Under the pieces are notes generated by a model. It was given only the letters and a program-made list of their open reading frames with translations. It was not told the origin of the DNA and did no database searches. From an uncultured Nitrososphaerales archaeon (lineage in GTDB: Archaea; Thermoproteota; Nitrososphaeria; Nitrososphaerales; Nitrososphaeraceae), in the NCBI GenBank assembly GCA_963713605.1, contig CAVQMO010000003.1:1-64000 (forward strand): a stretch of 64,000 bases of DNA, given 5' to 3'. Within the stretch, counting starts at the first letter, position 1. Each line of letters starts with the position of its first letter. Positions 31,471-37,035 of the stretch are shown one piece after another. Both the position numbers and the translations under genes were made by a program.

Positions 31471-32748
31471 ATGAAAATAAATCCTTTTAGAAAAAGCTCA
31501 GGAAATACAAAAAAGGTCACGCCAGAAGGTGAGCCTCTTGAAGAGACTGGTACAGGTGGCGAATTTCCAGGGGGGAGAAGAGGGAGTTTCTTTAGCCGAG
31601 GGTCGAGAAGGGAAGGAATATCCAATCCTTTTATTAAAATCATTATTCTAGCTATAGTCGGAATTATTGTTGTGACTATTGTTATAATAGGTAGTGTAAG
31701 AATCGTGGATGCAGGATATAGAGGAGTACTTTTGATATTTGGTGCTGTAGATACAACCAGATCCCTTAATGAAGGAATTCACTTCGTCGTTCCTGTCCGC
31801 GATAACGTCTGTACAAATGGAGGTAAGGACGAATAAGATAACAGAAGATGCCGCTTCTGCCTCCAAAGACCTTCAAGATGTAAGAACACAGGTAGCTTTG
31901 AACTATCATATAGATCCTGATAATGCACAATTAGTTTACAAACAAATAGGCTTAGATTACGCTAACAGAATAATTATACCGGCAATCCAAGAATCGGTTA
32001 AACAAGTAACTGCTAGATTCAATGCAGAAGAGCTAATTACGAAAAGAGAAACAGTAAAAGATCAAATTGATGAACAGATTACAGCAAGGCTTGCCGCCTA
32101 TAATATCGTTGTAGATGGCATATCGATTACTGAATTCCAATTTTCACCGGAGTTCGTTAGAGCAGTAGAAGCAAAGGTAGCAGCCCAACAGAGAGCATTG
32201 CAAGCTCAGAATGAACTACGAAGAATAGAGATAGAGGCACAGCAAGCAGAAGCAAGAGCAGTAGGAGAGCAACAAGCAAACATAGCTAGAGCAGAAGGAG
32301 TCAGACAGGCAAACTGTACTACAGGCACAGGGAGAAGCACAAGCCATAACAACAATAGACGAACAGTTAAGACATAGTCCGAGCTATTTAGAGTGGCTCA
32401 AATCCCAGAAATGGAATGGTCAGTTACCATTAGTGGTTGGGGGAGAAGCAACCGGGCCTGGAGGTCGATTCTGTGACTCCATTCATCGAGATTCCGACTA
32501 GTAGGAATGAATTCAACGCTACACAAGGAGGGGATGGTGATGGTGAAACCACTGGAAATGCAACATCAGCTAGCATTGGCGGAGGAGGAGGTAGTTCTGT
32601 TCAGAACGTATTAAACAACACAGGTACTAACCAACGCGACAAGATCGGGCATGCAGTAACGCCAGTTGATTATAGGGGTCATTATGTATTGAAAAAACGA
32701 CTACGAGGCATTAAGTATACGACCTGCAAAGCTAAAACATTTGTGTAA
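31471..32748 (+). CDS. Prohibitin/SPFH (band 7) protein (three frameshifts)
   Basis: GYRGV, EGIHF, SKDLQ, AVEAKVAAQQ, KWNGQLP; extra bases at 31810 and 32315 abut GTAC; third break near 32465. Confidence 0.88.
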
Positions 32749-32871
32749 AATATTTAGTAGTATTAGAAGTACAAGTGATCATACTAACAAATTTATTATT
32801 CTTTGTAGACATGCTCAATGCTCTGGTCCTAGTTCTTCGAGTTGCCCATGTAACTGTCATCCTGCCAGACT

Positions 32872-33135
32872 TTGAAGTGTGAGAACCCACGCCATAAACA
32901 GCACTTAAAGAGATTCCTAAAGAAATATCCAACGGCTGATAAGTAAGGAGAGTTTGCGATTATAATAACAGTAAACCCCGAGGATTGGGCTATCGATTTG
33001 GAGCATCCTGAGAAGAATACCGTAAAGTGTTGTCAGATGTGTAGCATCCAAGAGTATATAAAACGAGTAACTAGTCCTGAATGGAAGGACCAACCTGCTA
33101 GTTACAACCCTTACGAATGGAAGATAAGTTATTAA
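32872..33135 (+). pseudogene. Second copy of 26417..26677 with in-frame TAA at 32944
   Basis: Codon-by-codon alignment. Confidence 0.85.
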
Positions 33136-33167
33136 TAATAATACGGAGTTGGCTAACCAACCAAAAA

Positions 33168-33820
33168 GGCAGACGACCAGGAAAGTGAGGACTGACGGGA
33201 TCGCCTACCCGTACCATTTCAGATTGGTATTCATTTTATGGTCATTCCAACTAAAAGTCTTTTTGGTAATTTTACAAGATTTACGAAGTGAAAAGAGGTA
33301 GTGCGGCCGAGAATTTGTCATAACTGGCCGTCGCTACCCAAGCCATGCTGATTTACGATATGCTCATATTTTATAATTATTTTTTTATAATAGGCATTAT
33401 GGAACTTGGTTATTTGTTCTTCCAAATTTTTAAAATCTGATAGAGAAGTAGACGACCAATAAACGACATGTCAGACGCATTGATCGCCTACTGCCAGTTG
33501 GTTCTTTAAGAGTGATTTAAAGGCCTCAACTGCCAGCGAGTATTTGTACAACAAAGTATAAAAGTAGATAGAGAAGGACAGCCTACGTACAAGAATTTAG
33601 GAAGGGTGTAGGCGCCCTTCTCCCTTGCTAACCTTACTGCTTGGATTTAATAACTCTTGATTAACTTCGTCAAGTGACAATTTCATGAAATGAAAAATAG
33701 TTCGTAGAAAAAGAAAGGAAGGAAGGTTATTGATTATCTATTTTATGAAACTGCAGAAGAGTCTGATTTGATAAAAGGTAGGAAGGAACATTCCGAAGGC
33801 CTACGAGTGTCCTTCCTACC
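33168..33820 (-). ncRNA. Array of five candidate hairpin small-RNA cassettes
   Basis: Stems at 33168-33209, 33297-33338, 33447-33492, 33571-33622, 33777-33820; TATA-like box about 24 nt upstream in four; pyrimidine/T tracts downstream. Confidence 0.6.
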
Positions 33821-34082
33821 CACAGCATTGACTCATTTATTCCTTAAATAAGGGGTGCTTATAGGTTTTTTACCTAATTCTGTAAAAACTGAGAAAACTA
33901 ACAATTTCATGTAATATTGATACTTGGCCGTGTTACCCGATCGTGTCACCCCCCTGTCATATATTAAAAAGTAGATAAATTTCCACTCATGAGATATATC
34001 GCGAACGTTCGAATGGCAAATCAAGTCATTACTGGCGTATTGTTGTCGGTATTGTCTCCTTACGTTAATCGTTCTTACACCA

Positions 34083-34456
34083 GTGATGACTACTTTTGTC
34101 CAGGGGCAAACAACGACACCATTGCCATCTCCAGAATTACCACAATTTCCTTCTAACTTTTTTCAACCAACCTTAACGTTATGTGCATTCATGTATCTGG
34201 TTTCATTCCTTGGCAGTCAATGGCATCGTCACCAACACAATCCCCACAACGGGAATATATACCCGTAGTAATGATCGACAACCAGAATAACTTTATGAAT
34301 ACAATGTTTTCAGGTAACAATCTAATGCAACCTGTTGGTCAACAACAACAGCAACAACAACAGTTACCACAAGGACAAAATCTATGTGTTTACCATTATG
34401 ATCCTGCTATAATGCATCAAACACATCTGAGTGACTGGTCCGACCATTCAAAATAG
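34083..34456 (+). pseudogene. Fragmented Pro/Gln-rich secreted protein
   Basis: Two overlapping ORFs, poly-Q tract, hydrophobic leader upstream. Confidence 0.35.
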
Positions 34457-34468
34457 TCTGCCTCATCA

Positions 34469-35083
34469 ATGAACGACACAGAAACATTTTCCAATGATCT
34501 AAAAGACTTGGTCTTAAAACTTGGAAAGGCCTCTATGGTCACGTCATTAATAGGAAGTGTTAGCTTTGGTGATACTATAAACTTAAGCAATAATACGGGA
34601 GATTCAATAAGGCCTGAATTTAGTATATCTACTCCGTACGTATTCGTAGTCTGGCAAAATCAGAAAGGGTGACGATATATTCTTCAAAAGAAGGTACTGA
34701 TGATGGGGCTAGTTTTGGTGATACGATTAATGTAAGCAATAGTAGAGGCAATTCCATGAATCCTGAAACTAGTGTCACTAACACATCAAGCGTATTCATT
34801 ATATGGCAGGATCAGGTCAGCAATAGTAAGCTAAATGATATCTTATCAAGAAATAGTACAGATGGTGGAGCTAGCTTTTGGTGATACTATAAACTTAAGC
34901 AACCCCAATGACAATTCTACCGACTCAGATATTACTTCTTCGAATGACGGCAGAGTATTTGCAGTATGGTCAAATGATGCAAATGGTAAAACAAGTATTC
35001 TTCACATCACTGATGTAAGCTTTTGTAAGAATTGGTTTAATCCTTATGAAGATCTCTTTATTACATTTAGTATCACTATTTGA
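34469..35083 (+). pseudogene. BNR/Asp-box repeat gene in three frames
   Basis: Three repeats of SFGDTIN(L/V)SN..S..VF.VW. Confidence 0.7.
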
Positions 35084-35155
35084 CTTGGCGACCAGAGCAT
35101 AACACTCTAAAGTCGATGTATTCGAATAAGCATGGAGACTACTCTGTGGAATCAA

Positions 35156-35240
35156 TGATAAGTAATTTTCAATTTGTAGTTCTAAAACCCCTCTAACCTG
35201 ATTTTTCACATGCTTCCTTACATATATAATATATGTACGA
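35156..35240 (-). repeat. Dispersed repeat (promoter plus gene start), copy 1
   Basis: Matches 43308-43404 apart from an indel; both encode RGVLELQIENYLSL. Confidence 0.85.
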
Positions 35241-35808
35241 CTAGTGGGCTGCTAACTGCCCACAAATGCGGATATTCTGGATTGATTAATAATGCGGCCT
35301 ATGGTACCATGAATTACACTCCTTTGCTAATTGCGAGCAAGCGGATAATATTCTTCGTTAGGATTATGACGAGGTTTCAGAGAACGTAGAAATGGTATTA
35401 AAGATGGATGATAAACAGATGCTCTCTACTCGTTTACCTCATTCGCCCCACCTACATTGACCAAATCTTCGCCGAATGGATTTAGAATCATACAATACTT
35501 GTTATCAACCTGAGTGGTAGATATCATACAAGCCACGTCGTTGTCATGTTAAACCTGTCCAATGACATATGATAATTGCTGAAGCGTAAGAAAATCACCC
35601 TCAATTGAGGGAGCTGAATCTTCAACTACAGTTGAACCGTCCAATATTCCTATTCTTAATAGGTGTCTAAATCTGTCTCTTCGAAAGAACCATATGTTAT
35701 ATCCATCTCAACTTAGAATTACTAACCAGCGTTATGTATAATATCTTAGATAAAGAGAAATCTGTATAAATATTATAGCGGTAGGAAACCATTTTTCACA
35801 TAATTTCG

Positions 35809-37035
35809 TTACACTTTGGTTTTCAGTACCTCAGGCTTTACTTGTGATAATTGAGGATTTTGTTGTATCATGACCATGATCTGATTGAATCTCTGGTTGG
35901 TTTCTTCTCTTATAGATTCTATTTCAGATTCATACTTCTCTTTCATATCATGTAATTCTCTATCTTTTTCTCTAGGTTTGGCTTCAATACCTTTTTCCTC
36001 TTGCTTCAAGCGTCGTGTAATCTAGGAATGTCAAGTATTTCATACATTCCGTAGTATAAACCTCCATTCTATCAATCTCTAATATAATATGGGGATTTTG
36101 CGTGCCCCAAAAACCATTCGCTGTAATCTTGCCCTACTTGGTCACTTATCACTGTTTTTACAAAACGTCTAAACGAGTGTAAAGTTATCTTTCTTCGTCT
36201 TCCTAAGACCGTCTTCCTTTCTTTCATCCATTCCTGCCACAGATAATAACTTCTCAAATTCATGTATGATTCTAAAATAGATATTTTTTGGATTAGCCTT
36301 GTTTTTGACTCTGTATGCACTGAATACCAAATCATCAGATTTCAGTTTTTAAGTCCAATCATAGTCTTTGTTTTTATATTTCCAGTTAATCCAGTCTTTA
36401 AGAAATCTTGTGGCTTCATCTGAGATGTAAACATCCCGTGAAACTCTTGTCATTGAATATTCTTTTCTTACACGAATCTTTGTAGGGCTGGATGAAAAAT
36501 CAATATCCTTAAGCCGAATAGCAAATGCTTCTACTGCTCTGAAACCGCCACTGGCCAGGACCATAATATAGGCCTTCAATCTCCTATTAGTACATACAAG
36601 CAGGATGTTTTTAATACCTTGGACATCTAAAGCTTCTTCATCGTTTCGATATATTTTTGGCATCTTTACTTTTCTCTTAAATTTTGAAGGCACCGCATCA
36701 ATATTATAATATGCAAAATACGATCGCAAACCAGCCATATACAATTTGATACTAGGTGCTAAAAGATTTAGTGAACTAAGGAATGAAACGAATCTATCTA
36801 ATAATTCATACAGATTAATTTCTTGTCTTAATAAAGGTGATACGATTGTTTCTACGGAATAGTAGTTCAGCTTGTCGTCATGGAATAGAAATTGCTGAAA
36901 CTTATGTAGCCCCTATACTTTCTCTGATGCTGCACTATTTCTGCGAATGCTGTCCAAAAATGTTTTGACTCTAGGTAATTGTGCTATTTCATTTCTTGGG
37001 ACTGATTGGGTTGTGATCTTATCTCACTAGTTCAT
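35809..37035 (-). pseudogene. Tyrosine recombinase/integrase, fragmented
   Basis: SGGFRAVE, LHSFRRF, FLGH..YY over at least 4 frames; coiled-coil tail. Confidence 0.85.

Follow-up and report, generated by a model that had tools for sequence, protein, structure and literature searches.

The window analysed here, the first 64 kb of contig C3, belongs to a 4.09-Mb archaeal assembly (15 contigs, about 38% GC, 87% complete). An earlier note on this DNA had described an array of five GC-rich hairpins (A to E) on the minus strand of 33168-33851, free of long open reading frames (ORFs). All five hairpins were indeed present at these places, spaced by 198, 130, 154 and 129 nt, and no ORF of more than 50 aa lies in 33168-33851. 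On balance we lean towards reading the array as a tandem battery of five separate sibling small-RNA genes on the minus strand, which would come from several genus-specific families. The same genome encodes archaeal AmoA. A motif conserved from the array matched nine loci outside this genome, eight of which are Nitrososphaerales/Nitrososphaeraceae records; the ninth, in a Lachnospiraceae metagenome-assembled genome, was judged a chance match. From its AmoA and the Nitrososphaerales distribution of the motif, the host is a soil-type ammonia-oxidising archaeon (Nitrososphaeraceae), and archaeal promoter logic is therefore applicable.

RNA folding of the minus strand gave -22.2 kcal/mol for hairpin A (z -3.2 against dinucleotide shuffles), -25.0 for B (z -4.1), -22.8 for C (z -4.8), -18.7 for D (z -2.5; 4 of 200 shuffles folded as well) and -19.0 for E (z -3.0). 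Hairpins C and E collapsed on the plus strand to about -10 kcal/mol (-10.2, z -1.5, and -9.9, z +0.1, respectively), as expected from the earlier claim that their stems close by G-U pairs on the minus strand only. These G-U pairs thus mark the minus strand. The fold energy of A, B and D was about equal on both strands.

To place the array in its genomic background, both strands of the 4.09 Mb were scanned for hairpins of 11 or more contiguous pairs (counting G-U), an energy of -17 kcal/mol or lower and a loop of at most 34 nt. The scan returned 449 hairpins, so that 650 nt of a single strand are expected to hold about 0.036. Four of the five array hairpins pass these thresholds, and the array is the largest non-coding hairpin cluster in the genome, the bigger clusters being GCTGC-repeat coding DNA. 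The clustering exceeds chance. A promoter and terminator scan designed for bacterial signals and short loops missed all five hairpins.

The hairpin family of units C and E

Hairpins C and E both match one covariance model, in agreement with the common stem ascribed to them before, and are referred to as hp2. The alignment of 22 hp2 sequences has 12 stem pairs and is 93.6% paired; double changes occur in five of the 12 pairs, and one position is G-U in all 22 sequences. None of 500 shuffles equalled the alignment in pairing, covariation score or number of double-changed cells, and when the alignment was slid as a control, pairing fell to 28-61%. Wobble pairs fill 41 of the 264 cells and leave the opposite strand 78% paired. 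Moreover, the sense strand folds better in 18 of the 22 sequences (mean -20.7 versus -14.8 kcal/mol). A larger alignment, fitted to the covariance model and extended by 18 metagenome loci, contains 70 distinct rows, a few weaker antisense hits included. It is 94.6% paired and holds 26 double-changed cells, compared to 6.4 expected from shuffles; the key position is G-U in 54 of its rows. DNA contigs from a related strain also cover the array, and the sole difference in the stem of E (33175 G>A, plus strand) turns a G-C into a G-U pair. By these comparisons, hp2 is a well-supported, conserved structured family.

The covariance model built from the 22 sequences was run on 81 genomes of the family. 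Matches were found in the genome carrying the window and in six of the seven other sampled genomes of the genus (1-15 copies each), including one genome (G021) whose sequence is in no alignment, and in none of 73 genomes from 17 other genera (E<=1e-4, stricter filters). In the window's own genome 15 copies were counted (E<=0.01; 150 of 1383 candidates scored). A covariance model, a scan of related genomes and a covariation check had been suggested in the earlier note; for C and E they revealed a family conserved in the genus, with covariation above that of the shuffles. Compensatory changes in a conserved structure were thus found for C/E, and in B and D differences in the stem that leave pairing intact were noted by eye.

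In this genus, hp2 hairpins often stand in same-strand arrays; several genomes and metagenome contigs contain such arrays, at a spacing of 108-118 nt. A second array in the window's own genome (contig C10, about 135.7-136.4 kb) contains C, D and three or four further hairpins. The spacers of these arrays contain modules that are conserved between species. Directly past the stem lies TTTTTATTATACCAAAAARACTTTTA..., which contains the near-palindrome AAAAGNCTTTT, and after this module an AT-rich box is found about 26-34 nt before the next stem. The TTTTTATTATACCAAAAARACTTTTA/AAAAGNCTTTT module also precedes hairpin E in the window.

Unit C has the same order in this genome and in others of the genus: a TATA-like box (consensus TTTTATAAYATGT) located 31 nt before CAGT, a first hairpin called hp1, a linker (AATCAAGGGTTAC in many copies), hp2 (hairpin C, GGTAGGCGACCA...TGGTCGTCTRCC) and a T-rich tail. 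Of 25 hp1 sequences, 23 fold into one and the same three-helix shape, with only modest stability. The TTTAAA box that had been proposed for C sits in the apical stem of hp1 and reads CATAAG in two homologues. If transcription starts before hp1, the RNA of unit C may be about 115 nt long with two hairpins, whereas a start at the inner box, 29 nt before hp2, may give about 60 nt. The length of 45-55 nt foreseen for all units may therefore not hold for unit C, whose P1 box 31 nt before hp1 may instead give the two-hairpin RNA.

In five species with a single copy each, the C-type unit lies at an orthologous place about 45 nt upstream of, and codirectional with, a small Cys-rich ORF. The unit has a column identity of 0.60-0.77, like the adjacent ORF, and the DNA further upstream is unalignable. 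This argues for vertical inheritance and constraint. The position beside the Cys-rich ORF also keeps a cis-regulatory reading alive for the ancestral copy. The conserved small Cys-rich (zinc-ribbon-like) ORF at loci L004-L007 and L012 has about 89 aa and a weak Transp_Tc5_C match; at L004 it is shortened by a 1-nt indel.

Among the 70 family rows the hp2 loops form recurrent groups common to different species, for instance ATGCGYCTGACA..GCTTAT (about 20 rows), ..TCTTGTCT.., ..GCGATTCTTC.., ..GGCTTCACAA.., ..YATTCTGG.. and ..GGTYAACCTCC, and they are pyrimidine-rich on average (0.58, antisense rows included). The loop sequence therefore seems constrained, which would fit a working surface. Of the related scaffold with variable loops put forward earlier, the common scaffold of C and E with differing loops stands, but the loops do not vary freely, since they fall into these cross-species groups. 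Exact GGAGG upstream of approximate starts was counted 18 and 27 times, compared to about 6 per bin (2146 ORFs), and the 16S 3' end was not found in the genome by pattern search. Shine-Dalgarno use looks limited in this genome. As the GGAGG enrichment is modest and concerns a small share of genes, an anti-Shine-Dalgarno role of the loops is speculation.

A mosaic of unit types

Compared with its paralogues, the array is a mosaic: it combines at least four types of unit, which are also found at other places in the genome and in the genus. The earlier idea of five units of one family was not borne out: A/B, C, D and E differ in their upstream modules, and the stems differ except for C and E. By BLAST, the stretch 33227-33690 recurs at about ten other places in the genome, with 78-94% identity and in varied combinations, and the adjoining stretches are likewise duplicated elsewhere. 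The order B-C-D is present in three places (the window, C10:107300-108100 and C12:96250-97050) and C-D in a fourth. In two further copies, B precedes a promoter region of C type whose second hairpin is a different one, and one B copy stands alone. In all, five other copies of hairpin B were seen in the genome (C10, two on C12, C5 and C15); the copy on C15 carries a C-G to U-A double change, noted by eye, that keeps the pairing.

Hairpin A has no paralogue by BLAST in this genome and does not match the covariance model R1, although its upstream region is a 71%-identical paralogue of that of unit B, including the ATTTCATGAAAT-type palindrome. D-type hairpins are found in this genome and in four others of the genus; they have the loop core GACAAATTCTC in common, while their stem sequences differ with complementarity kept (judged by eye, no formal count). 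Their TATA region lies about 50-55 nt upstream and is preceded by the palindrome TTCCGGAA, which is degenerate (TTCCATAA) in the window. The positions of all elements are given in the table. The P1 box of unit C overlaps the T-run behind hairpin B. Between units A and B, 39 nt within 33704-33744 are absent from a related-strain contig (run X4), so spacer length can vary.

No conserved ORF runs through the units, judged from the ORFs of the window and the comparison of paralogues. A candidate conserved peptide through hairpin D (ORF MAWVATAS...) was rejected, because the paralogues have frame-changing loop indels and an early stop.

Table. Elements of the hairpin array, listed in the direction of the minus strand
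Element	Position	Strand	Evidence
Unit A, palindrome-like ATTACATGAAAT, lying upstream of the TATA box; paralogous to the element of unit B	33904..33915	-	repeat search and sequence
Unit A, TATA-like box TTATTTAA; starts 30 nt before first paired base	33844..33851	-	sequence; spacing compared to tRNA promoters
Hairpin A with T4 run (33773-33776); single copy	33773..33821	-	folding, BLAST, covariance model R1
Unit B, palindrome ATTTCATGAAAT	33680..33691	-	repeat search and sequence
Unit B, TATA-like box TTATTAAA; starts 30 nt before stem	33646..33653	-	sequence
Hairpin B; 16 pairs, one bulge	33570..33623	-	folding, BLAST, paralogue comparison
Unit C, P1: upstream box TTTTATAC, TATA-like (consensus in the family TTTTATAAYATGT); 31 nt before CAGT of hp1	33556..33563	-	
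Unit C, hp1; imperfect palindrome with invariant apical TCACTC, TTTAAA inside (33515-33521)	33489..33537	-	
Hairpin C (hp2 type, 33447-33492), pyrimidine tract, then T4 (33432-33435)	33432..33492	-	folding; covariance model 63 bits, E 1e-14
Unit D, degenerate TTCCGGAA-type palindrome (here TTCCATAA), then genus-conserved TATA region TATTATAAAA	33383..33404	-	
Hairpin D with conserved loop core GACAAATTCTC and T4 (33291-33294)	33291..33339	-	folding, genus comparison
Unit E, near-palindrome AAAAGACTTTT (33253-33263) and TATA-like ATAAAATG (33232-33239); 29 nt before stem	33232..33263	-	
Hairpin E (hp2 type) with T5 (33163-33167)	33163..33210	-	folding; covariance model 39.8 bits

Promoter-like signals and readings of the array

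With the distance counted from the first box nucleotide up to the first paired one, TATA-like boxes lie 30 nt before the stems of A and B and 29 nt before those of C (inner box) and E, so that transcription would begin at or just before each stem. In tRNA genes of the same genome, the start of the TATA-like 8-mer lies 32-36 nt upstream of the mature 5' end (six measured of 25 listed). A TATA box at promoter distance, as in archaeal small-RNA genes, is thus present in A, B, C and E as a matter of geometry only. For D the proposed spacing of about 31 nt did not hold, as its genus-conserved TATA box is 53 nt upstream. Likewise, the T tracts described behind the stems directly follow A, D and E as T4-T5 runs, but come 7-13 nt past the stem in B and C. 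In the hp2 family, TTT occurs within 8 nt of the stem in 46 of 70 rows. Moreover, every type of unit is preceded, at a constant distance, by a conserved module of its own. P1 was considered as a family-specific promoter word and rejected, since the pattern is TATA-like in a generic way.

The most economical reading of the array is one of sibling small-RNA genes, each with its own promoter, the C/E scaffold being the best supported part; this is a prediction from sequence. Each unit would have an AT-rich TATA-type promoter, preceded in several units by a short palindrome that could bind a regulator. The GC-rich hairpin would begin at the expected start or a few bases past it (about 25 nt past in D), followed by a short oligo-T stop. 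Such units would yield hairpin RNAs about 55-80 nt long, with unit C perhaps giving about 115 nt and two hairpins. The units may have been duplicated and reshuffled from several genus-specific sibling families. In the C/E family, a fixed stem with a near-invariant G-U wobble would be combined with loops of a few recurrent, mostly pyrimidine-rich types. We infer that the stem and U-tail could give stability and a common handle for protein binding, and that the loops could serve as working surface: they would pair with purine-rich sites in mRNAs, or a protein would recognise them. In that case, the hairpins would be sibling regulatory RNAs under common control.

Small intergenic RNAs with their own TATA promoter and oligo-U terminator are described for Haloferax, Methanosarcina and Sulfolobus in a review (PMC4152357). 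The array resembles them in its short non-coding intergenic units, promoter-like geometry, stable hairpin and T-run, whereas its units are multi-copy and in tandem and have no sequence or Rfam relation to them. A second likeness is found in bacteria. LhrC1-5 of Listeria, Qrr and PrrF1/F2 are homologous tandem small RNAs, each with a promoter and a terminator hairpin, and the C/U-rich loops of LhrC pair with ribosome-binding sites. By analogy, the array with its tandem sibling units and similar period of about 110 nt may work in a comparable way. Here, however, the promoters would be archaeal, there is no homology and Shine-Dalgarno use looks limited; we do not claim membership.

Several observations weigh against sibling small-RNA genes. 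The aligned hp2 sequences are related, and the shuffle controls therefore overstate the support. Duplicated fragments and decayed genes make up the locus like a patchwork, and some family copies are broken or truncated (the C12 copy of this genome, L014, L017, L020 and L021), so that individual units in the window may be relics. Hairpin A stands without relatives. For hp1, compensatory change was not seen above controls: 101 of 500 shuffles were paired as highly as the observed 77%, and 115 of 500 reached its covariation, and hp1 could be a DNA palindrome around the promoter rather than RNA. TATA-like words are common in AT-rich DNA (61 occurrences of the P1-type pattern compared to about 87 expected by composition), which makes a box alone weak evidence, and the T-runs are short (T4-T5) besides being set off from the stems of B and C. 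A search for sequencing runs that contain the stretch listed no RNA run. Metatranscriptome-labelled contigs from three runs cover 32000-32650 and 34433-35209, the flanking genes, and not the hairpins; this coverage speaks neither for nor against expression of the hairpins. Finally, when the loops of A-E and hp1 were compared to the genome with blastn-short, only paralogues and chance-level matches were returned (the best being 15 nt of the D loop, E 0.023), and the loops of A, B and E had no exact match in viral contigs; the loop search advised in the earlier note thus gave no target above chance.

Three other explanations were considered, and each is less well supported than sibling small-RNA genes. 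The first, which we regard as unlikely, holds that the ancestral unit is a 5' leader or attenuator before a small zinc-finger gene, with the hairpin and T-run as a premature stop, and that the arrays of large genomes, the one in the window among them, are non-functional duplicated debris. The five-species block in which the C-type unit and the small Cys-rich ORF are conserved about 45 nt apart suggests such a leader, and debris would fit the truncated family copies and a window locus made of 80-95% identical fragments and broken genes. However, a gene of this kind is missing downstream of most copies and, in several species, downstream of whole arrays; the flanking genes are unrelated. Pairing and the G-U position kept across 70 distinct copies are unexpected of decaying DNA, and the modules between the hairpins are conserved between species as well. 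In addition, the conserved AT-rich stretch between the T-run and the Cys-rich ORF could be the promoter of that gene.

We consider it rather improbable that the units are REP-like or MITE-like repeats of DNA or single-stranded DNA, spread by a transposase or by recombination, with the hairpins as recognition structures and incidental AT-rich flanks. REP elements that are targets of RAYT transposases have GTAG at their head, and GTAG is also found at the foot of the stems here. Like REP/BIME elements, the units are imperfect palindromes, dispersed or clustered in extragenic DNA; they are multi-copy with mosaic junctions, many copies lie at contig ends in fragmented assemblies, and a copy number of 1-15 between species suggests expansion. 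Unlike such elements, they number about 15 per genome and not hundreds, and their promoter-like flanks and loop groups are conserved. No Y1 (RAYT/IS200) transposase (PF01797) and no TnpB-type domain was found in this 87% complete genome; the control search for PF01797 was positive in 6 of 14 control genomes. Other arrays have no transposase or integrase beside them, and the paralogue junctions showed neither terminal inverted repeats nor target duplications, although no systematic search was made. In five species, one unit has kept its synteny and is vertically conserved, and the G-U pattern and T-run on one strand suit RNA better. Viral contigs contained no hp1 motif and a single match to the hp2 pattern, in coding DNA of an unrelated contig of 47% GC, which was judged chance.

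The least probable alternative, a single long non-coding transcript or precursor from one upstream promoter that is cut into hairpin RNAs, with internal AT-rich boxes that are not promoters, would agree with the close spacing of all units on one strand and with the B-C-D block in three places and C-D in a fourth, but hardly with a T4-T5 run behind every hairpin, the varying order and content of units between arrays and the separate upstream module of each unit type at its fixed distance.

Known systems of similar outline differ from the array. As in CRISPR arrays, hairpin-forming units with differing inner parts stand in a row, but identical direct repeats and a regular repeat-spacer layout are missing and each unit has its own upstream module. 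The earlier note had set CRISPR aside; accordingly, no near-identical direct repeats are present in 32000-35500 and no Cas1 (PF01867) match was found in the 87% complete genome. Integron attC core sites are of the GTTRRRY type, whereas the 3' arms here end in CTACC or CTGCC, the units are without ORFs and the sole integrase-like ORF is a 131-aa fragment 2.5 kb away. Type III toxin-antitoxin loci (ToxI-like) differ in that the array has no identical tandem repeats and no protein gene conserved downstream across arrays. A comparison to Rfam, also advised before, connected the array to no known family: Rfam 15 gave no match at gathering score over the whole window, and with E up to 10 only three chance-level matches in 32800-34100 (best E 0.16).

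If expressed, the units of the array would belong to the first candidate families of sibling small RNAs in the phylum. In the literature we found no study of small RNAs in ammonia-oxidising archaea and nothing on intergenic repeats in Nitrosocosmicus, and the 2014 review (PMC4152357) records no small-RNA study in Thaumarchaeota up to that time. Ammonia-oxidising archaea drive soil nitrification. The conserved promoter modules point to common regulation, and species differ widely in copy number (1 to 15). The fixed stem with its invariant wobble offers a concrete handle for the search for a partner protein, and the loop groups can be tested as seeds. It is a far-reaching and improbable extension that hp2 is a programmable scaffold-plus-loop system, a form of non-CRISPR RNA-guided regulation or defence confined to one lineage of soil ammonia oxidisers. 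A dedicated protein would then recognise the fixed stem (invariant G-U, bulged U), exchangeable loops would direct it to nucleic-acid or protein targets and the arrays would serve as a library of specificities. In the flanks of 18 loci, no recurrent protein neighbour was found among 43 ORFs; the flanking genes are unrelated housekeeping types (hydrolases, transporters, TFB and others), with no transposase, integrase or cas gene among them.

Surroundings of the array

Long ORFs are sparse around the array, and several are fragmentary (an SPFH-domain piece and a 131-aa integrase piece). Between 30 and 37 kb, few long ORFs and several multi-copy pieces suggest a decayed or rearranged island. An SPFH/Band-7 domain ORF of 202 aa lies at 31769-32377 on the plus strand, and 32000-32513 of the SPFH/Band-7 region has four DNA copies elsewhere in the genome (two on C5, one each on C10 and C15; 78-82% identical). 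It is followed at 32871-33135 (plus strand) by the remnant of a small Cys-rich protein gene (...CCQMCSIQE.IKRV...EWK..Y*), of which a 45-aa ORF alone is still open. The remnant is convergent with the array, its stop codon being 33 nt from hairpin E, and intact paralogues of 86-92 aa are present at C3:26417-26677 and C12:138394-138672.

On the other side of the array, 34561-35049 (plus strand) has a 96%-identical copy at C3:167536-168030 and contains internal tandem repeats of about 150 nt (TAGCTTTGGTGATAC...); its short overlapping ORFs suggest a frameshifted repeat-protein gene. Metatranscriptome-labelled contigs extend over this repeat-protein-like region (34433-35209). Further on, the 131-aa ORF at 36349-36744 (minus strand) has a partial Phage_integrase domain match (E 5.5e-9) and is probably a fragment.

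Other small hairpins were also noted. Immediately past the T5 of hairpin E, a small hairpin GGTTGGTTAGCCAACT lies at 33147-33162 on the minus strand, and a similar element, GGGTTGGTTGTTGATACCC.CCAACC, was found upstream of C-type units at L006 and at 145.7 kb on C12 of the same genome. A separate three-copy hairpin family, TAGGATAGGTAAGGG...CCCTTACCTATCCTG, with about -25 kcal/mol, is located at C12:98508-98572, C12:138920-138984 and C2:69877-69940, one copy being near a paralogue of the small Cys-rich gene.
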